From contig QWHN01000001.1 of assembly GCA_021404905.1 (NCBI GenBank), positions 258,810 to 322,809 on the forward strand: a DNA stretch of 64,000 bases, in the 5' to 3' direction. The DNA is from Candidatus Saccharibacteria bacterium CPR2 (GTDB lineage: Bacteria; Patescibacteriota; Saccharimonadia; Saccharimonadales; QWHN01). Shown here in pieces: positions 127 through 60,826 of this stretch (position 1 is the first letter of the stretch; each line of letters begins with the position of its first letter). The notes under the pieces are model-generated. The model did no database searches and was not told the DNA's origin. It saw only the letters and a list, made by a program, of their open reading frames with translations. A program made the position numbers and the translations under genes.

Positions 127-669
127 ATGAGTCAAAATCAAATTCCCAAAAAATTATTATGGATTGATCTGGAAATGACTGGGCTCAATCCCTTAAAAGA
201 CAAAATATTAGAAGTAGCAGCGATTGTGACTGATTTTGATTTTAATAGACTTGATAGCTATGAATGTGTAGTGCATCAATCTGAAGAAACAATTGCCGGT
301 TCGAATAACTGGGCAAAAAAAACTTTCACTGAATCCGGACTATTTAAAAAAGTTAGAGAGTCAAGCACGGATGAAAATGAAGTTCAGAGTAAATTAATTT
401 CCATAGTCGATAAACATTTTTCGGATTTAGCTATTCTTGCGGGTAATTCTATTCATCAGGACCGTTTATTTATTCGAAAATATTTTCCGAAACTCGAAAA
501 AAAATTACATTATAGAATGCTTGATGTTAGCTCGTTGAAAATTTTGATGCAGGGTAAATATAATATTGAATTTGAAAAAGTCGGCAAACACAGCGCCATG
601 GACGATATAAAAGAAAGCATGGTAGAACTGCGATATTATTTGGATTACTTACATGGGATTAAGTCATAA
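127..669 (+). CDS. orn: oligoribonuclease (DEDDh 3'-5' exonuclease)
   Basis: 180-aa ORF. The N-terminal LLWIDLEMTGL motif is the Exo I DEDD box of oligoribonuclease, and a C-terminal H-x4-D motif (HSAMDD) is present. A TATAAT hexamer at 113-118 sits 8 nt upstream of the ATG. Confidence 0.85.
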   Translation: MSQNQIPKKLLWIDLEMTGLNPLKDKILEVAAIVTDFDFNRLDSYECVVHQSEETIAGSNNWAKKTFTESGLFKKVRESSTDENEVQSKLISIVDKHFSDLAILAGNSIHQDRLFIRKYFPKLEKKLHYRMLDVSSLKILMQGKYNIEFEKVGKHSAMDDIKESMVELRYYLDYLHGIKS

Positions 670-1063
670 AAATTTAGAGAATTATATACTTGCAAAACCG
701 GGTGCGAAGCTTGATTATCCATTTGGCGAGGGGGTGGCAGTATATAAAATTGTTACGAGTCTAAAAAACCCTGATTTAAGTAAGGGCAAAATGTTCGCAC
801 TAATTGCAGAGAAATCTGATCCTCTACGAATAAGCTTGAAATGCGACCCGCTGCTAGCTCAAACTTTGCGTGAAAAATATGAGTCGGTAATGCCCGGATA
901 TCACTTAAATAAAAAACACTGGAACACCATAATTTGTTCCGGCCAGTTATCTGATCAAGAAATTTATGAATTTATTGATCACTCTTATACTCTTGTTTTT
1001 AACTCTTTTAGCTTTCAGGATAGGGCAAAAGTTGAAAGATTAAAAATTAACCAGCAAGCTTAA
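653..1063 (+). CDS. MmcQ/YjbR-family (DUF419-like) putative DNA-binding protein
   Basis: 136-aa ORF; length and sequence pattern match the small MmcQ/YjbR family. The start overlaps the orn stop by 17 nt. Confidence 0.55.
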   Translation: MGLSHKNLENYILAKPGAKLDYPFGEGVAVYKIVTSLKNPDLSKGKMFALIAEKSDPLRISLKCDPLLAQTLREKYESVMPGYHLNKKHWNTIICSGQLSDQEIYEFIDHSYTLVFNSFSFQDRAKVERLKINQQA

Positions 1064-1637
1064 TGAGCGTATCTTGACTCTCGTATATTTTTTCAAGTAT
1101 TTGCTTAAGATCATCTTTTTTGGTGCTGTTGTAGATTTCCGTAAGAGTATCTTTATTTTCAATAAGAAGAATTTTTATCTGCTCAAATAATTTCTCATCG
1201 AAGGCATTTGTTTGACTGGCTTTACTCAATTCATCCTCAACTTCTTGACGCAAGTACTTTTCTTGAATTTTTTTATCCAGCTTCGACTGATATTCGTTTT
1301 GAAAATATTGTTCCAATTGAGTGGAGTTACTCGTTAATATTGCCTGAGCTTCCCTTAAAAAATTCTGTCCTTTGGACGTTTGGGGCGTTTTTTCAAATTT
1401 TTTTAGTATTCTAAGGATTTCATTTTGCTGAGCAATTGCTTTTTGAATGTTAGATTTTGTACCTTCTCCGCTACTCAACATCGGTAGTATCGCAAATAAA
1501 ATAGCAAAGACAAGCAATACCCCAATAACCATCATTAGTATTTTTTGTTTTTTTGCTTGAGGGTTGGAGGGATCGGTTTGTATTAGTTGTTTGATATTGG
1601 GCAAATTCATCCTGACTATACTATAGACTAAATTCAT
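1047..1637 (-). CDS. hypothetical membrane-anchored coiled-coil protein
   Basis: 196-aa ORF with one N-terminal hydrophobic segment (ILMMVIGVLLVFAILFAILPML) followed by a K/E/Q-rich, predicted coiled-coil region. No family recognised. Confidence 0.4.
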   Translation of the reverse strand: MNLVYSIVRMNLPNIKQLIQTDPSNPQAKKQKILMMVIGVLLVFAILFAILPMLSSGEGTKSNIQKAIAQQNEILRILKKFEKTPQTSKGQNFLREAQAILTSNSTQLEQYFQNEYQSKLDKKIQEKYLRQEVEDELSKASQTNAFDEKLFEQIKILLIENKDTLTEIYNSTKKDDLKQILEKIYESQDTLIKLAG

Positions 1638-1745
1638 AAGCTTAAGAAGTATAGAACGTGTAAATGCCTAAAGTTTTTAACTAATTTCTAGTTTCTATTT
1701 CCTAATTCCTGGTCAGAGGTGCGCCTCATACTCTATACTTTAAAT

Positions 1746-3479
1746 ATGGATGTCAAAGAGGAGATTAAACAGAGGCTTAGCGTTGAAGAAGTTGTCGGAG
1801 ATTATCTGGAGTTAAAACGCTCTGGTCGTAACCTGAAGGCCCTCTCGCCTTTTACTAATGAGAAAACGCCCAGTTTTATGGTGAGCCCGGAAAAGCAAAT
1901 ATGGCATGATTTTTCTTCAAATCAAGGCGGAGATATTTTTACGTTTGTGATGCTTGTTGAAGGTGTTGACTTCAAAGGCGCCCTTGAGTTGTTAGCAAGA
2001 AAAGCAAACGTTGATCTTTCACAGTACCGCATGGATGGCGGGCTTGCCAGTAAAAAAAAGAAACTTTACGAATTACTGGAACTTGCAACCAGATACTATC
2101 AACACTGTCTTATAAAGAACTCTCATGCTCTGAAATATGTAGCAAAACAACGAGAGTACAAAAAAAGTACCGTAGTTGATTTTAGACTGGGATATGCTCC
2201 TTATACAGATAACGGTCTAACTACATTTTTGCTTAAAAAGGGTTTTAAAGCTGATGAATTAAGAATGGCTGGCATATCCGTTATGCGACGTAGTGGGTTA
2301 TCGGATATGTTCCATGGACGGATTATGATACCGCTTGCAGACGGCCAAGGTAGAACTATAGGATTTACAGCACGGATTTTACCCGGCGAGGAGTCAAACC
2401 AGGCGCCAAAATATATAAATACGCCTCAAACGATTTTGTATGACAAAAGCCGCCATGTGTTCGGTCTTCATCTTGCCAAGGAAGCAATTCGGAAACAAGA
2501 TGAAGCTATCATTGTTGAAGGTAATTTGGATGTAATCGCGTCTCATCAGGCGGGAGTAAATAACGTGGTGGCTACTGCGGGGACAGCTCTAACCCCGGGG
2601 CACTTAAAACAGGTTAATCTCTTAACTCAAAACATTTCTCTCGCGTTTGATAGTGATGATGCCGGGGTTGCCGCCACTGAACGGGCAATAGTTAGCGCTC
2701 AAGCTGCTGGAGTTAATTTAAAAATAATCGACATTGATGATGGCAAAGATCCAGATGAAATTATCAGGCAGGATCCTGAGTTATGGGAAAAAGCAATTGC
2801 GTCCGCCAGGCACGTTATGCCTTGGTTATTTGAACACTACCGGAAAAAGTTCGATTTAAAATCTGGCCCTGGAAAAGTTTCATACACGAATAAATTGCTG
2901 GATGTAATATCACAAATCGAAGATCCAGTTGAACAAGACCACTACATTAATGAGCTTGCCCAAATTGTTGATTCAACTAAGAAAGCAATAATACAGAAGC
3001 TGGAGACCAAAAAGTCTAAGCCTGTCAGGAAAAAAGTAATTATTAATTCCGCAAAACTAGAACCTGATAAATCCGCGTATAAAGATGCATATTTAGCATT
3101 AAATTTAGCTTTTAGCGGTCTTAGAGATAGTTTGAGTGATATCGAAGAAGAAATGTTTGAGAAACCTTGGAGAAGACAGGTATTCTCTTATATCATCAAA
3201 CACAACCAACCAGTAAATAATACTCCTAAAGAGTTGCAAGTTGTGGATGACTATGTCAAAATCTTGCTATTGAAAGCGCAGGAGCTTTATGGCGATTGGA
3301 CGGATCCAGACCGGCTAGTGGAAGCAGTTGGTCTAAAACATCGCCTTATTCGTGAAAATAAGCAAAAACTGAAAATAGAAATTAGAAATAAATTAAGTGA
3401 AGCCGAAGCTAAGGGCGATAATTTACGTGTTAGCGAGTTGCTTAAGAAATATCGAGAGTTATTAAGGGAGGATGCATAG
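1746..3479 (+). CDS. dnaG: DNA primase DnaG
   Basis: Primase zinc-binding/RNA-pol region (FTNEKTPSF…[16 protein letters not shown]) and TOPRIM block ([16 protein letters not shown]). It sits immediately upstream of rpoD, the classic operon. Start set at the internal ATG 1746; the track ORF begins at 1719. TATACT lies 6 nt upstream of that ATG. Confidence 0.9.
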
Positions 3480-4588
3480 TGAAACTAAGTAAGAAGAAAG
3501 TACAAGTTTCAGAGCCGGATCTTCAGGCTGTGAAGCAAAAGTTAATTGAAGATGCCAAGAAAAAAGGGAACATAGATCAAAAAGATATCTTTACAAATAT
3601 TCCTGATACCCCAGAGAATACCGAGATACTCGATGAGCTTTATACAGAACTTGTTGATATTGGCATTGAGATAGTTGGACGCGATGGGGAAAGTGAAGAA
3701 GAATGGGAAGAATATGAGGAAGAAGTTATCGAAGAAAATCCTGCGTATTTAGATGATATTGCTGATGATTCCGTAAGACTTTATTTAAGAGAAATCGGTA
3801 AAATTCCCTTGCTAACCGCTGATGAAGAAATTGAACTTGCCAACAAAGTTGCAAAGGGGGATAAGGAAGCTAAAGACAAAATGGCAGAGGCCAATATGCG
3901 TCTGGTGGTTTCCATTGCAAAACGTTATGTAGGAAGGGGTTTGGATCTTTTGGATTTGATCCAAGAAGGTAACACTGGCCTGCTGCGTGCTGTTGAGAAA
4001 TTTGACCCTTCAAAAGGATTTAAGTTTTCAACTTACGCGACTTGGTGGATCAGACAGGCGATTACGCGAGCTATTGCAGATCAGGCTAGAACCATTCGAA
4101 TCCCAGTTCATATGGTTGAAACCATAAATAAATTACTCAGAACTCAGCGTCGTCTAACCCAGGAGCTTAATCGCGAACCTTCAAACGAAGAGATTGCCGA
4201 GGCCATGGAGATGGAAGTTGAAAAAGTTGAACACATAATGAAGATCAAGCAAGATATAAGCTCGCTTGACGCCAGCGTAAGGGATGATGAAGAAGATTCG
4301 GTACTAGGTGATTTTATCGAAGACGAGGAAAGCGAGAGCCCGGACGAATCTGCTACAACCCAGTTGTTAAAAGAGCATGTAAACGATATTTTAACAATTC
4401 TTTCTGAGCGTGAGCAAAAAATACTAAAAATGCGCTTTGGCCTTGAAGACGGACGCAGTCATACGTTAGAAGAAGTTGGTAAGGAATTTAATGTTACTCG
4501 CGAGCGTATTCGACAAATTGAAGCCAAGGCTTTAACTAAATTGCGTAAGCACAAAGACGCTAAGAAGCTGCATGATTATCTGCAGTAA
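3479..4588 (+). CDS. rpoD: RNA polymerase primary sigma factor (sigma-70 family)
   Basis: Regions 2-4 are conserved ([54 protein letters not shown]; region 4 [25 protein letters not shown]). The GTG start overlaps the dnaG stop. Confidence 0.92.
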
Positions 4589-37197: not shown

Positions 37198-37345
37198 AAA
37201 TGAGAATTCTCAAGTATCAAGTATCAGTTTTCAAAAAATACAAAAATAATCAATTCCAAATATTTGGAAATTGGAAACTGAGAACTGAAAACTCGCAAAC
37301 CGGCTTGCCCCTCGAAGCTTTAGCGAAGTGGGGAGGTTTGTGCCA

Positions 37346-44883: not shown

Positions 44884-45804
44884 CTACTTAGATCTATGAA
44901 ATTTTTGATGTACCTCTTTAAGATGAGGGTCTGTTATATGGGTGTAGATTTGAGTTGTAGCAATATTGCTATGCCCAAGCATAGATTGAACAGAGCGAAT
45001 GTCAGCCCCATTCATTAATAAATCCGTGGCGAACGAGTGCCTCAACGTATGGGGAGATACTTTTTTAGTGATGCCAGCTTTGCGTGCATAATTACTGATG
45101 AGCCTCTGGATACTACGTGCCGTAAGCCTCATGTATTCTCCGTCATTTGTTATGTCTTGCGATCCCGAATAGCGAATAAAAAGAGGCTGAATATTATCCG
45201 TTCTTTTTGACAGATATTCTGACACCCAGTTTGCGGCTAAATCATCAATAAATACTGGCCGGTCTTTTTGACCTTTGCCGCGTACCATAAATTCTTTTCG
45301 TTTAAGATTAATATGATCTCTGTTAAGGTTTACAAGCTCAGATATCCGAAGTCCGCTGGAAAATAAAAGCTCCAGGATCGCGCGGTCTCTTAGGCCAGTT
45401 AATGTGTTTGTGTCCGGTTGTTCAAATAATCTCTTAAGCTCATTTGGGCTCAGGAAAGTAACTTGTTTACGCCGGACTTTAGCAAGTTCAATTTTGTCAG
45501 CTGAAAGTGAGGTAATATCGCGTTTTGCCAAGTACCTCAAGAAGCTTCTGAGTGCTATTAAGTGGTAATTTTGCGTGGTTTTGGAGATTTCTTTTCCTTG
45601 CTCATCTTCGTAGCGATTTAACCAAAGGCGCCATTTTCGAACAAGCTCATTATCTATTTTGTTTATATCAACGTCATCAGCAAATTCAACTAAACGCATT
45701 AGATAAAGATGGTAGTTTGAAATAGTTTTTTGCGATCTGTTTTGCTCGACTTCCAGATATTCGAGGAAGTCAACAATGGCATCAGACAGGTAGTAACTGC
45801 TCAT
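44884..45804 (-). CDS. xerC: tyrosine site-specific recombinase (XerC/XerD family)
   Basis: N-terminal SAM-like core-binding domain. Catalytic R…HxxR…Y pattern present (LRHSFATDLLMNGADIRSVQSMLGHSNIATTQIYTHI). TACAAT lies 6 nt upstream of its ATG. Confidence 0.85.
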   Translation of the reverse strand: MSSYYLSDAIVDFLEYLEVEQNRSQKTISNYHLYLMRLVEFADDVDINKIDNELVRKWRLWLNRYEDEQGKEISKTTQNYHLIALRSFLRYLAKRDITSLSADKIELAKVRRKQVTFLSPNELKRLFEQPDTNTLTGLRDRAILELLFSSGLRISELVNLNRDHINLKRKEFMVRGKGQKDRPVFIDDLAANWVSEYLSKRTDNIQPLFIRYSGSQDITNDGEYMRLTARSIQRLISNYARKAGITKKVSPHTLRHSFATDLLMNGADIRSVQSMLGHSNIATTQIYTHITDPHLKEVHQKFHRSK

Positions 45805-54077: not shown

Positions 54078-54566
54078 TTAAAACCTAGAACCACTCTGTG
54101 TGACACCGTGAAATTCATTATATGCTTGCTCGGCCTTATATTCTTCAGGTACTTTTTTTACCTTTGAATAAAAGTCGCGAAGTTCTTCAAAACTGACTGA
54201 ATCAACCTTCCGTGCAACTGTAGAAGAGGGTTGAGATTCACTACCTATAGGTCGCCATATTCGCTCGAGCTCGCTACTGCCTTCTGTCCATCTTACACCT
54301 CTAACGGCGCCTTCCTGATGGTATGATATTTCATAGAACTCATAGCTTTTGTTGCCCTCTGCATCAGTTTTCTCTATTAGCTTAACAGCGATGGGATCTA
54401 TACTATTCCGAAACGTAGTTTCTACACTTTTTTCACTACTGCTATCATCAAGCTGTACGGGTTCAATGCCACACTCACTAAAAGCTACCTGCATTGCTGT
54501 ACTCATAGCTCCAATAATTTTTTCTGGGCTGTCTACTGTTTCTGGTTGTTGTATTGATTCTGCCAT
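54078..54566 (-). CDS. hypothetical acidic protein
   Basis: 162 aa with no recognised motif. Confidence 0.3.
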   Translation of the reverse strand: MAESIQQPETVDSPEKIIGAMSTAMQVAFSECGIEPVQLDDSSSEKSVETTFRNSIDPIAVKLIEKTDAEGNKSYEFYEISYHQEGAVRGVRWTEGSSELERIWRPIGSESQPSSTVARKVDSVSFEELRDFYSKVKKVPEEYKAEQAYNEFHGVTQSGSRF

Positions 54567-54603
54567 AAAACCACACTAACATAAATATAAATATTTGTCA
54601 ATT

Positions 54604-54899
54604 TGGCGGGCCCGACCCTCCTTCGCTAAAGCTTCGGGAGGGCAGACCGGATGCGCTTCGCTTGCACGGACTTCACTTATCGATGCAAGCATCTGCACGC
54701 TCAGTCCTGTACGAACCGGCGATCTCATTCACTTCGTTCATGGATCGCCTCGTTTGAACCGAGTAAGACCGGATATCGCGTTCTCCGCCTCTTGGCGGAT
54801 CACACTCCTTCCTGCGATGCTCGGTAAAAACATGTGAACACGTTTTTAACCTGCGCTTCTCGTCCGCCGAACCTCCGGTTCTCATCCGGGACGGTGCAC
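54604..54899. other. GC-rich non-coding island (candidate structured RNA or remnant of a tRNA-targeted integrative element)
   Basis: About 300 bp, visibly above 50% GC in a genome of roughly 38% GC, with multiple local hairpins. It begins with TGGCGGGCCCGACC (54604-54617), an exact 14-nt copy of the tRNA-Asp 3' end at 54940-54953. Only Arg/Ser-rich ORFs lie within it. Confidence 0.4.
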
Positions 54900-54939
54900 A
54901 AAATAAAAAATGAGCTGCCAATAAGGCAACTCACTTTTT
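54900..54939 (-). terminator. rho-independent terminator immediately 3' of tRNA-Asp (bidirectional geometry)
   Basis: GAGCTGCC-AATAA-GGCAACTC stem-loop, flanked by an A-run on one side and a T-run on the other. Confidence 0.6.
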
Positions 54940-55017
54940 ATGGCGGGCCCGACCGGATTCGAACCGGCGATCTCCTCCGTGACAGGGAGGCGTGATAGGC
55001 CAACTTCACTACGAGCC
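54940..55017 (-). tRNA. tRNA-Asp (anticodon GUC)
   Basis: Hand-folded: acceptor GGGCUCG/CGGGCCC, D-stem GUGA/UCAC, anticodon stem CCUCC/GGAGG with loop CUGUCAC, T-arm GCCGG-UUCGAAU-CCGGU, discriminator G, encoded CCA. A 10-bp perfect hairpin (CAGATAGAGG…CCTCTATCTG) abuts the 5' end at 55018-55044. Confidence 0.85.
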
Positions 55018-55190
55018 CAGATAGAGGCTTCGCCTCTATCTGGGCGAGCCATCATTCGTCTCAACGAGGATTCTGTTTCGACTTGGTAAATACTAGCAAT
55101 AATTGCCTCTGTTTGCAATCTGCCAAGTCTGTTAAAATTATCTCGCGCGGTATGCTACCTTAGCTCAGTTGGCTAAACCTACTCGCCATT

Positions 55191-55266
55191 TGCCGGAGTA
55201 ACTCAGTTGGTAGAGTAGCTGTTTCGTAAATAGCAAGTCGTGGGTTCGAGTCCCATCTCCGGCTCC
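55191..55266 (+). tRNA. tRNA-Thr (anticodon CGU)
   Basis: Hand-folded: acceptor GCCGGAG/CUCCGGC, D-stem ACUC/GAGU, anticodon stem GCUGU/AUAGC with loop UUCGUAA, T-arm GUGGG-UUCGAGU-CCCAU, encoded CCA. Confidence 0.88.
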
Positions 55267-55393: not shown

Positions 55394-55756
55394 ATGCTTG
55401 CATTTATTTTCAAAAGAACATTTTTTAGTGACAAATATGCTGTAATTTTACTAGTTGGATTTTTACTTTTTACTGTGGCTAATATATTACTGGTTTTGCT
55501 CATGTTATCTAGCCGTAATTACCAAATTCCGATACGTTTTTCGGGCTATGAAGGCATTGGGGTGTTTGAGCGCGGTCAGTGGTACTATCTCTATGTTCTA
55601 CCAGTTTTTTCATTTGTAGTTTTTGCCGTTAACTCAGTGCTGTCTATAAAAATACATCAGCTTCGGAGGGAGTATTCAATAGCAATTCTTGTGTTGTCAT
55701 ATCTAGTAGCGACATTTAATATGGTTGTTAGTTATGCTTTTATGCGTGCTGCGTAA
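55394..55756 (+). CDS. small integral membrane protein (3 predicted TM)
   Basis: Hydrophobic profile only. Immediately upstream of the GT2 gene with a 4-nt gap. Confidence 0.4.
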   Translation: MLAFIFKRTFFSDKYAVILLVGFLLFTVANILLVLLMLSSRNYQIPIRFSGYEGIGVFERGQWYYLYVLPVFSFVVFAVNSVLSIKIHQLRREYSIAILVLSYLVATFNMVVSYAFMRAA

Positions 55757-55760
55757 ATAG

Positions 55761-57383
55761 ATGAAAAACATAGAAATACCCATAGAAAATAAAACCAAAA
55801 CTTATCGTTTTTTTGAAATTTTGCCGGGCACTATGAGCTGGCTGATTTTGTTTTTGCCGATAATCTTAAGCGTCATCAATCCATCACTTGCGGCATATTT
55901 CATCATTATGTATATGGTTACCTGGCTTTTAAGGGCTGCGGTGATGTCGTTTAGAATTTTTCAAGCCTATCACAAGATGCAATGGCGCCAGGGCCTTAAT
56001 TGGCAGAAAATGCTTAGTGATATAGAGAATTTTGATAAAGCTATATGTGAATTGCACAATAAAAAACGCGATAGATTTGAAAGATGGCATTATGAGAATT
56101 TGCTGAGTTATAAGATAAGCGATCAAGAGAAGGTGAAGCCATCGGATCTTTTTCACGCGATTATAATAGCTATTTACAATGAAAGTATTGAAATCGTAGA
56201 ACCAACCGTGAAAGCCGTTATAAATTCTAATTACGATACTTCAAAAATCATTTTGTACCTTGCCTATGAAGAAAGAGGTGGCGCTCAAACCGAGGAAGTT
56301 GCCAGTAGGCTTAAAAGTAAATATGGCGATAAATTTTTTATTATGAAGACCACAAAACATCCTAAGGACATACCAGGTGAGGTAATAGGTAAAGGTGGCA
56401 ACATAACCTATGCTGGTCTGGATCTTAAGAAAGAGATTGAGAAGCGTAACATCGATCCAATTAATGTATTGGTCACGACTTTGGATGCAGACAATCAGCC
56501 GCACGAAAATTACCTCGCGTCGATAGCATATGCGTATTTAACAGAAGAAAATCGGCAGTATAAATCGTTTCAACCAATACCTATGTACACAAATAACATT
56601 TGGGATGCGCCAGCACCTATGAGGCTAATAGCTGTAGGGAGCTCGTTTTGGTGGTCCATTCAATCAGTTCGCCCGCATTTACTGAGAAATTTTAGCTCTC
56701 ATGCGCAGGGGCTAAGGGCTCTAATTGACACGGATTTTTGGAGTACCAGAACTATTGTAGAAGATGGTCATCAGTTTTGGCGCACATATTTTAGATATGA
56801 CGGCAAACATGAGGTAATACCAACGTTCGTACCTATTTACCAGGATGCGGTTTTATCTGATACTTACGTGCGAACATTTAAAGCTCAATTCGTTCAGCTT
56901 AGGAGATGGGCTTGGGGAGCAACAGATGTTGCGTATGTCGCGACCAAAAGCATGGAGGAAGCTTGCAATGCGCCAGCCTGGGACAGAATATTTAAATTCT
57001 TTAGACTTCTCGATAGCCATGTCAGTTGGGCTACAGCGCCTTTGATACTAGCCGGAGCAGCTTGGGCCCCAATTCTTTTTAGCCCTGTGGGCAGGGAAAG
57101 TATCGTTGCCCACCAGTTGCCTTCTATAGCCAGTTTCTTGCAAACCGTTGCCTTGTTCGGAATTCCGGCGATGATTTATCTCAGCTTCCAAATGCTGCCT
57201 CCAAGGCCAAAGCACTACAAAAGAAGAAGAAGCTTACTAATGCTTGTACAGTGGATCTTAACACCAGTGGTCAGCATACTCTATGGGGCGTTTTCGGCAC
57301 TTTACTCTCAAACCCGCCTTATGTTTGGGAAGTACTATGGTCAATTTGATGTCACAAAGAAGGTAAAAAAAGGCACAAGCTAA
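55761..57383 (+). CDS. family 2 glycosyltransferase, processive synthase type (membrane-embedded)
   Basis: N- and C-terminal TM segments, DxD motif (TLDADNQP), and the Q-x-x-R-W motif (QLRRWAWG) typical of cellulose/chitin/hyaluronan-synthase-like enzymes. Confidence 0.75.
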   Translation: MKNIEIPIENKTKTYRFFEILPGTMSWLILFLPIILSVINPSLAAYFIIMYMVTWLLRAAVMSFRIFQAYHKMQWRQGLNWQKMLSDIENFDKAICELHNKKRDRFERWHYENLLSYKISDQEKVKPSDLFHAIIIAIYNESIEIVEPTVKAVINSNYDTSKIILYLAYEERGGAQTEEVASRLKSKYGDKFFIMKTTKHPKDIPGEVIGKGGNITYAGLDLKKEIEKRNIDPINVLVTTLDADNQPHENYLASIAYAYLTEENRQYKSFQPIPMYTNNIWDAPAPMRLIAVGSSFWWSIQSVRPHLLRNFSSHAQGLRALIDTDFWSTRTIVEDGHQFWRTYFRYDGKHEVIPTFVPIYQDAVLSDTYVRTFKAQFVQLRRWAWGATDVAYVATKSMEEACNAPAWDRIFKFFRLLDSHVSWATAPLILAGAAWAPILFSPVGRESIVAHQLPSIASFLQTVALFGIPAMIYLSFQMLPPRPKHYKRRRSLLMLVQWILTPVVSILYGAFSALYSQTRLMFGKYYGQFDVTKKVKKGTS

Positions 57384-60442: not shown

Positions 60443-60826
60443 TTGATAAATTTCATGTCAAGCCAGAACGAGAAATTTAAATTAAAGGTTTACGATTTAG
60501 TAAGTACAATTCCGAGAGGCAGGATTATGACCTATGGGCAAATTGCCACACTTTGCGGTAGGCCGAGAGCTGCTCGAATCGTTGGTGGTATAGCCCATTA
60601 CGGTCCATCAGACTTACCGTGGCAGAGAGTGGTAAAGAAATCAGGGGATCTGGCAAGTGGTTTTCCAGGTGGTAGAGAAAATCATAAACTTATGCTTGAG
60701 AACGATGGTGTTAAAGTGGCAGATAATTACACTGTTGATGTTGAAGAACTAATATGGTGGCCCTCCTCCGCTAAAGCTTCGGAGAGTAGGCCAAAGCCAG
60801 CCAAACCGGCAGAAAATAGTAAATAG
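60443..60826 (+). CDS. alkyltransferase-like protein (ATL; MGMT-fold with Cys-to-Trp active site)
   Basis: O6-alkylguanine-DNA-alkyltransferase DNA-binding domain with PWQRVV in place of the catalytic PCHRVV motif. Confidence 0.7.
   Translation: MINFMSSQNEKFKLKVYDLVSTIPRGRIMTYGQIATLCGRPRAARIVGGIAHYGPSDLPWQRVVKKSGDLASGFPGGRENHKLMLENDGVKVADNYTVDVEELIWWPSSAKASESRPKPAKPAENSK

Follow-up and report, generated by a model that had tools for sequence, protein, structure and literature searches.

The DNA analyzed here (the window) is a 64-kb stretch from the genome of an uncultured member of the Saccharibacteria; NCBI names the source of a neighboring protein as "Candidatus Saccharibacteria bacterium CPR2." Within the window, a GC-rich intergenic island lies next to the gene for tRNA-Asp. 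Sequence comparison resolves the island into a tandem of two units, E1 (54892-54765) and E2 (54764-54604), that belong to a single element family, a conclusion drawn from a covariance-model match to E1 and from local alignments of E1 and E2 to relatives. The elements, of about 130 nt, are a previously uncatalogued, Saccharibacteria-wide family found beside tRNA genes. With about even confidence, we interpret the island as two small, structured mobile elements in tandem, which lack an integrase and target the 3′ ends of tRNA genes.

ARAGORN placed tRNA-Asp(GTC), with an encoded CCA, at 54941-55018 on the minus strand, where the Rfam tRNA model scored 62.5 bits. The initial annotation reported an exact 14-nt repeat of the tRNA 3′ end, and the identity was confirmed, as TGGCGGGCCCGACC is present at both 54604-54617 and 54941-54954, the latter being one nucleotide away from the 54940-54953 first given. 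No further copies of the 14-mer were found in the 64 kb when up to two mismatches were allowed, and shuffled sequences contained a mean of 0.06 matches, with two matches reached in 1 of 100 shuffles. A repeat scan indicated a second exact repeat, the 15-nt CGAACCGGCGATCTC, at 54712-54726 and 54960-54974, that had been overlooked, and repeat scanning with coordinate mapping also located GACCGGAT at 54645-54652 and 54951-54958. With these two additional repeats, the entire 34-nt 3′ half of tRNA-Asp can therefore be traced through the island as three colinear pieces in the orientation of the tRNA: GAGATCGCCGGTTCG (15 nt, exact, 54712-54726), ATCCGGTC (54645-54652), and GGTCGGGCCCGCCA (54604-54617). 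The pieces are interrupted by a 59-nt hairpin-bearing segment that splits the T-loop and by a 31-nt hairpin at the junction of the T-stem and the acceptor strand. A further 8 nt or so of similarity, proposed earlier between CGAAGGAGG and CGAATCCGG, has no homology to the tRNA and is instead the 3′ side of the inserted hairpin. We refer to the last 18 nt of tRNA-Asp (54941-54958), copies of which are found in the elements, as the tail.

Unit E1 (54765-54892, minus strand) was delimited by coordinate mapping, folding, local alignment, and a covariance model, R1, which was built with helices P1 to P4 from the two element copies at one related locus (L187) and searched against 0.79 Mb. R1 matched the window at 54751-54897 on the minus strand (21.5 bits, E = 0.0035) and also matched another related locus, L202 (37 bits, E = 1.4e-7). 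On the minus strand, E1 contains a 5′ anti-T-loop motif, CCGGATGAGAACCGG (54875-54889), the P2 helix GAACC-GGA-GGTTC (54869-54881), the P3 hairpin (54823-54851), the P4 hairpin TCCGCC-AAGA-GGCGGA (54784-54799), and a truncated tail, GATATCCGGTC (54767-54777). Local alignment of E1 gave z-scores of 6.0 to L261b, 3.9 to L260, and 3.2 to L260Arg.

Unit E2 (54604-54764, minus strand), recognized by the repeat scan, coordinate mapping, and folding, is irregular. Its 5′ hairpin, CTCGGTTCAAACGAG (54749-54763), and a hairpin of the form GGCGATC...GATCGCC (54718-54749) are accompanied by the exact 15-nt piece, which copies tRNA positions ~45 to 57, by the 59-nt hairpin-bearing segment (54653-54711), and by the ATCCGGTC and 14-nt tRNA end pieces located above. 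The E2 body without its tail aligned to L277 (z = 7.3) and L163 (z = 6.1), scores that were attained in 0 of 300 shuffles. The inserted 31-nt hairpin (54614-54644, minus strand) was read from the sequence as TGCCCTCC-CGAAGCTTTAGCGAAG-GAGGGTC with a duplication of GTC on its flanks, and its removal restores CATCCGGTCGGGCCCGCCA. The hairpin is a copy of a motif that is present three times in the window.

The physical description of the island in the initial annotation was largely borne out. The island has a GC content of 0.55 to 0.57 (~56%) relative to a window mean of 0.40, and its predicted fold is more stable than that of shuffled sequences on both strands (z = −6.55 for the minus strand and −4.53 for the plus strand), consistent with the reported GC enrichment and local stem-loops. 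Only short overlapping open reading frames (ORFs) of 82 amino acids or fewer are found in the island on either strand, in line with the initial annotation. Moreover, an inverted-repeat scan and folding detected the expected bidirectional terminator-like hairpin between the island and the tRNA, at 54903-54941, with 17-nt arms, a 5-nt loop, and flanking A and T runs. A simple terminator scan did not call this hairpin, but equivalent hairpins follow tRNA-Asp in nearly all relatives.

One way in which a GC-rich island of this size could end in an acceptor strand with CCA is if it encodes a known stable RNA, such as transfer-messenger RNA (tmRNA), signal recognition particle (SRP) RNA, RNase P RNA, 6S RNA, or a group I or II intron. 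Size, GC content, and the tRNA-like 3′ end are the only features in favor of such an assignment, and we regard it as extremely improbable. Rfam 15 returned only tRNAs, both at gathering scores over the window and at E ≤ 10 over 54500-55200, and returned only tRNAs at the element loci of six relatives; SRP RNA, RNase P RNA, 6S RNA, and group I and II introns were rejected on this basis. Also absent are the SRP domain IV motif, to which one segment had initially been said to bear a loose resemblance, and the RNase P conserved-region motifs. ARAGORN reported five tRNAs in the window and no tmRNA. The island lacks a GGGCYCG-type 5′ acceptor strand and a G3:U70 pair (position 70 would be C), its T-arm is split by 59 nt, and translation in three frames gave no plausible tag frame. 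A permuted tmRNA was rejected as the CCA is terminal and ARAGORN was negative, and a disrupted full tRNA pseudogene was rejected as the 5′ half is absent. Also discarded were an antisense RNA resembling a primer-binding site (no promoter and no reverse transcriptase), a class C group II intron inserted after a terminator (the island is far too small and has no Rfam match), and homing of the CRISPR-associated transposon type (no transposon genes). The proposal that the island specifies a stable RNA therefore failed for SRP RNA, tmRNA, and every other known class, and what is left of it is the weaker possibility of a structured RNA with a tRNA-like 3′ end, which is retained because compensatory changes keep the hairpins, as described below.

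To place the island in a comparative context, metagenomes were scanned with a pattern for the tRNA-Asp D-arm, which yielded 120 loci. The tRNA-Asp gene is nearly invariant in all 120 and is identical to that of the window in 29. The variants of tRNA-Asp(GTC) at these loci (L163-L282) are compensatory changes in the acceptor stem (GGGCTCG/CGGGCCC, GCGCTCG/CGAGCGC, and GCGCCCG/CGGGCGC), and almost all copies have, just downstream, a hairpin bordered by symmetric A and T tracts. In the majority of loci, the next gene comes immediately after the tRNA and its terminator. About 10 of the 120 (L163, L187, L201, L202, L216, L258, L260, L261, L277, and L212) carry an element homologous to parts of the island; these Asp-linked elements are 120 to 150 nt long and GC-richer, and the element in L212 is located further downstream. 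The metagenome scan shows that the island type is not unique to this genome. A separate set of relatives anchored on MgtE (80 genome loci, 59 to 73% identity) contained neither tRNA-Asp beside MgtE nor a homologue of the island.

The same architecture follows other tRNA genes, with a terminator hairpin after tRNAs for Arg, Lys, Leu, and Ser and without a terminator after tRNA-Gly, and the elements there measure 90 to 160 nt. When 322 tRNAs in the Saccharibacteria loci retrieved were scanned, a copy of the tRNA's own tail was found for Leu(TAA), Ser(GGA), Lys(CTT, in two genomes), Arg(CCT), and Asp. The copies comprise the last 16 to 21 nt of the tRNA at +123 to +166 and are preceded by a hairpin-rich body. 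Read in the orientation of the tRNA, the elements have a 5′ motif that is the reverse complement of the T-loop (..GAUNNGAACC..), a GAACC...GGUUC helix whose cap varies in length, the sequence GGUUCGGYGKAGCG, one or two more hairpins followed by a AGCGAAGG-type motif, and (G)AUAUCCGGUC, which often extends to GGGCCCGCCA. In most cases, the tail is that of the adjacent tRNA. An internal module of the element beside tRNA-Gly in L183 is homologous to the module of the Asp-linked element in L277 (E = 2e-5). The family is undescribed in Rfam 15 and in the literature searched, including that on tRNA integration in Saccharibacteria and Patescibacteria.

The arrangement of the tail copies is strictly polar. 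Thirteen-nucleotide tRNA 3′ cores, with at most one mismatch, were searched for in 1.6 Mb of downstream and 1.4 Mb of upstream sequence. The downstream sequence contained 11 recurrences on the same strand and the upstream sequence none, and a single recurrence was on the opposite strand. Nine of the 11 downstream recurrences have a spacing of 126 to 169 nt, and the remaining two are found at 57 nt and 3.3 kb. The elements are also patchily distributed. Within a conserved synteny extending from tRNA-Asp to SOD, an element is present in L163 and absent from L268, L245, L238, and L186.

Four loci (L187, L261, L212, and the window) have arrays in which the pattern of tail, terminator, optional cargo, and body is repeated and closed by a last tail. 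In L187, the order is tRNA, terminator, body, tail, terminator, four genes (3.1 kb), terminator, body, and tail. L261 has two units, and at L212 a tail fragment is found with a terminator and a body at a distance of 1.3 kb from the tRNA. The products of the 3.1 kb between the copies in L187 (reverse strand, ~400-3560 from the oriented start) are two NUDIX-like proteins and two others of no known family; a protein resembling pRiA4b ORF-3 is encoded after the second copy, with no recombinase there. The genes beyond the last tail are mostly orphans, and near-consensus promoters abut the tail in the window, L277, L258, L187, L201, and L212. In the window, a promoter-like TTGACA-17-TAGTGT sequence (54573-54601, minus strand), read from the sequence and absent from the list of a consensus promoter scan, lies directly after the last tail and before an ORF of 162 amino acids (54078-54566, minus strand) immediately downstream of the island. 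The 162-amino-acid protein has no Pfam match, no homologue in the 120 tRNA-Asp loci, and no match among 5.8 billion proteins other than itself. This orphan ORF may be either accessory cargo or flanking sequence.

One element carries a tail that is foreign to its neighbor. The L183 element behind tRNA-Gly(CCC) ends in ATTCTCTGTACCCGCACCA, which is identical to the 3′ terminus of the tRNA-Gly allele in L277, L179, L207, L231, and L244; the adjacent gene ends in ATTCTCGTATCTCGCACCA. The element (85 nt, within 8500-8720 of L183, minus strand) directly follows the tRNA without a terminator and has a 10-nt direct repeat, CGCACCAAGA, on its flanks; both its T-arm halves and its tail match the tRNA-Gly allele of the other genomes and not the adjacent gene. 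Because of the foreign tail and the module shared with L277, we conclude that the tail can travel with the element.

Copies of tRNA 3′ ends in direct orientation are known as the attL and attR sites that flank genomic islands, prophages, and satellites integrated at tRNA genes, where T-loop sublocation sites and tandem island arrays also exist. The initial annotation offered such a duplication as one explanation, in the form of a remnant left by an integrative element. The part of that proposal that held is mobile DNA targeting tRNA genes, which is supported by the downstream-only polarity, the patchiness, the arrays, and the foreign allele in L183. The elements resemble att repeats in that an intact tRNA is followed by a copy of a tRNA 3′ end in the same orientation, and in their strict polarity, patchy distribution, tandem arrays, associated orphan genes, and one foreign-allele tail. 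They differ from att systems in their uniform size of ~130 to 165 nt with no integrase nearby, in a distal T-arm copy split by a hairpin module of 60 to 100 nt, in a GC-rich body conserved by structure through compensatory changes, and in the service of related bodies to at least six tRNA species.

The part that did not hold is a one-off event. A single decayed remnant of an integrase-encoding island or prophage, once inserted in the tRNA-Asp gene of this genome, could account for the co-oriented downstream repeat of the tRNA 3′ end, for the orphan genes on the flanks of the tRNA cluster, and for a sequence resembling a tRNA 5′ fragment nearby (~55153-55185), yet we consider it rather unlikely. 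Random decay would not reproduce, in different genomes and beside different tRNAs, elements of the same size with homologous sequence and structure, and the recurrence of ~165-nt units largely refutes a single remnant. The window instead contains two copies of a discrete, conserved, structured element of ~130 nt that recurs at many tRNA genes without an adjacent recombinase, and neither remains of an integrase or phage gene nor similarity to phages or plasmids was detected.

The element body appears to be maintained as a structure. Comparison of the two L187 copies indicated that P3 and P4 pairing is kept through seven double substitutions, and comparison of L258 with L261 indicated that pairing is kept through four; the evidence from compensatory change thus comes from two sequence pairs, a small sample. 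These sequence comparisons suggest that the body is held together by selection on pairing. In Asp and Lys elements, folding predicts that the 5′ anti-T-loop motif can pair with both split halves of the T-arm, which would re-create a duplex comparable to the target's own double-stranded T-arm, from the center of which the hairpin module would protrude. The corresponding P1/P2 end pairing is poor in Arg and Ser elements. The active form could be either an element-encoded RNA or a folded single-stranded DNA site, and folding of the tRNA-sense strand is favored because of the high GC content of the bodies, the compensatory changes, and a modest strand bias in folding energy.

The same structural evidence could indicate that the elements are chromosomal genes for structured noncoding RNAs in tRNA orientation, made for instance by read-through or as a 3′ trailer, whose 3′ ends mimic the acceptor strand and CCA of the neighboring tRNA and for which mobility is incidental. 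Possible roles for such an RNA include a decoy for tRNA ends, a partner of tRNA 5′ halves, a mimic of the substrate for CCA addition or 3′ processing, and a scaffold with a 3′ guide. We regard this alternative as serious but less probable than mobile elements. In its favor, the bodies have a GC content of 44 to 61%, mostly above 50%, compared with ~40% for the window, the island folds with a z-score of −6.5, and P3 and P4 are kept by compensatory changes with G-U pairs in the covarying helices. Moreover, the unit size is uniform, many tails end in CCA and several pair the acceptor strand to leave an NCCA overhang, and the minimum free energy summed over 17 elements favors the tRNA sense over the antisense strand (−801 versus −737 kcal/mol). 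The strand bias is marginal, however, and several elements fold better as the antisense strand. Furthermore, in most copies the body comes immediately after a terminator, a promoter would not fit between the two, and a convincing antisense promoter is lacking. An element is present at only ~10% of tRNA-Asp loci and is missing from syntenic relatives. Tails are often truncated or mutated past ATCCGGTC (L163, L260, L216, L201, and E1 of the window), and therefore the tRNA-like end is not under consistent selection. The foreign-allele tail in L183 also argues against a resident RNA gene.

RNAs with 3′ ends that mimic tRNA are known from the tRNA-like domain of tmRNA, the YrlA/Y RNAs, viral tRNA-like structures, and the 3′ ends of retroplasmids. 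The elements are like these RNAs in that a structured domain is followed by an acceptor strand and CCA, with some copies pairing the acceptor strand and leaving the overhang. They are unlike them in having no tRNA-type 5′ acceptor strand, no intact T-loop, no Rfam match, an often truncated tail, and no linked partner genes (smpB context, rsr, or reverse transcriptase).

Another group of candidates consists of recombination sites that act as folded single strands, as do integron attC and CTX-phage attP, which are used by tyrosine recombinases. By analogy, the elements would resemble such sites in that sequence is conserved only near the two ends with a variable, structured center, and in that the inverted ends could pair, here as the anti-T-loop motif with the T-arm halves (seen in Asp and Lys and poor in Arg and Ser). 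They would also resemble attC in their position at the distal end of gene cassettes, in arrays beside a fixed site. In contrast to attC, the elements have no RYYYAAC/GTTRRRY consensus, their end motifs being GAUNNGAACC and (G)AUAUCCGGUC; unlike integrons, they adjoin no IntI or attI and the cassettes carry their own promoters; and, unlike both attC and attP, they place a branched P3/P4 module inside the mimic of the target.

Transposons of the IS200/IS605 type also depend on structure. The elements might be miniature derivatives of such a transposon or of another hairpin-dependent or RNA-guided one, in which case the body would be a transposon end or an omega-RNA-like scaffold, the tail a flanking "guide," and the TTCGA of the T-loop a target-adjacent motif. 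The geometry is suggestive, as GGTTCG(A) is followed by a two-hairpin module and 16 to 18 nt of tRNA end, so that a structured scaffold of ~130 nt precedes a 3′ segment identical to the target; most copies lack a target duplication, and a module is common to Gly and Asp contexts. Nonetheless, this origin seems very unlikely to us. No ORF like TnpA, TnpB, or IscB is located next to any copy, no Rfam family of omega RNAs or IS605-associated RNAs matched, GGTTCG sits within a conserved internal helix and not at a clean target boundary, and the adjacency of tail and terminator within arrays is not predicted.

Several observations weigh against the interpretation that we prefer, small mobile elements that target tRNA 3′ ends. 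A scan for tyrosine recombinase motifs and Pfam searches of cargo ORFs turned up neither a recombinase nor a transposase or reverse transcriptase next to any of the copies; the cargo matched NUDIX, PRiA4_ORF3, or nothing in Pfam, and the tyrosine recombinases that are present lie several kilobases away and look like housekeeping Xer proteins. The only one that the motif scan located in the window is a 306-amino-acid ORF (44884-45804, minus strand) with Phage_integrase and SAM-like N-terminal domains, Xer-like and 9 kb from the island, and similar ORFs are found several kilobases from tRNA-Asp in eight other loci. Also unfavorable are the outcomes of searches for an element in motion. Megablast with the flanks returned no pair of empty and occupied sites, there being no close genome pairs among these loci, and six other contigs of the same organism, retrieved from Logan with the 162-amino-acid protein as anchor, are 100% identical across the island. 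No viral contig with an element was found, as scans for the tail and body motifs gave only chance or coding matches, and blastn in "distant" mode against phage and plasmid collections indicated no similarity to the island. Two features of the architecture are also awkward: a classical tyrosine integrase crossover predicts an uninterrupted T-arm, but the distal T-arm is split by 60 to 100 nt, and a standard attB model predicts the native terminator after the distal tail, where a promoter is found in the window, L277, and L258. Finally, the uniform unit size and the conserved folding fit an RNA gene equally well.

For the mobile-element interpretation, we infer the following mechanism. E1 and E2 would be partly degenerate copies of a family that inserts immediately 3′ of Saccharibacteria tRNA genes, with each element carrying, or being bounded by, a copy of the tRNA 3′ end from T-loop to CCA. 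A unit would recombine with the cognate tRNA gene at its 3′ end or in its T-loop region, and the resulting locus would consist of the intact tRNA, in most cases a terminator, then the structured body, and finally a second tail. Arrays would arise when such events recur or when tails undergo unequal exchange, sometimes with accessory genes trapped in the process. The body, with its anti-T-loop motif, GAACC/GGTTC helix, and two to three further hairpins, would when folded as a single strand juxtapose mimics of the double-stranded T-arm of the target and probably serves as the element's recombination site or guide-like portion. Because no recombinase is linked, mobility would presumably be supplied in trans, and many copies may now be inert scars. 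The 14-nt repeat that drew attention to the island would be the last tail of the array, split later by an unrelated, mobile-looking hairpin of 31 nt.

A more specific version of this mechanism is a so far undescribed cassette-type mobility system, in which structured modules of ~130 nt, each closed by the tail of one particular tRNA and acting as folded single-stranded DNA attachment sites or as guide-like RNAs, insert themselves and accessory genes behind the cognate tRNA by means of a recombinase or nuclease provided in trans. We consider the cassette version doubtful. If it exists, such a system would, by analogy, resemble integrons or RNA-guided transposition, with the T-arms of tRNAs as docking sites.

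The hairpin motif that interrupts the last tail occurs in the window at 37303-37335 (plus strand), 54614-54644 (minus strand), and 60756-60790 (minus strand). It has an invariant 16-nt loop, CGAAGCTTTAGCGRAG, and a variable, GC-rich stem of 5 to 8 bp (CCCTC/GAGGG, CCCTG/CAGGG, CCCGC/GCGGG, CCCTA/TAGGG, and others), and the three copies of the 16-mer compare with 0.07 expected. The same loop with different complementary stems is present in IMG/VR contigs, the loci with the motif including L088, L099, L103-L105, L122, L125, L126, L144, L157, L161, and L162. At least five complementary flanking pairs of differing sequence were found in 19 of 59 distinct hairpin contexts (56 from viral contigs and 3 from the window). 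The motif is often intergenic and sometimes lies just 5′ of a start codon with the 3′ side of the stem overlapping GGAGG. It has no match in Rfam, and a search of the literature for the 16-mer returned nothing relevant.

The Asp/Thr/Gly tRNA cluster to which tRNA-Asp belongs has ORFs on its flanks at 54078-54566 (minus strand), 55394-55756 (plus strand), and 55761-57383 (plus strand), none with a significant Pfam family; the 540-amino-acid ORF among them has only a sub-threshold match to glycosyltransferases. Because ORFs without a Pfam family are found on both sides, the surroundings of the cluster appear to be variable and prone to insertion. The sequence at 55153-55190 (plus strand), GCTACCTTAGCTCAGTTGGCTAAACC..., resembles the 5′ fragment of a tRNA, lies 38 nt upstream of tRNA-Thr, and was called by neither ARAGORN nor Rfam; it may be another rearrangement scar in the cluster. 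A perfect 14-bp inverted repeat, GCCCAGATAGAGGC / GCCTCTATCTGGGC, is located at 55015-55045, with one arm taking in the first four bases of tRNA-Asp. Its center reads GGCGAAGCC on the tRNA strand, a GCGAAG-type motif also seen in the elements and the hairpin family.

Few mobile elements are recognizable in genomes of the candidate phyla radiation. If the elements are mobile, they would offer the very small genomes of these episymbionts a compact means to acquire and rearrange accessory genes beside tRNAs with no integrase linked to them. Should they be RNAs, they would constitute a lineage-wide class of mimics of tRNA ends. In either case, the family accounts for GC-rich "orphan" intergenic islands beside the tRNA genes of Saccharibacteria and provides a signature by which they can be annotated, namely an anti-T-loop motif together with hairpins and a tRNA tail and, in most copies, a terminator.

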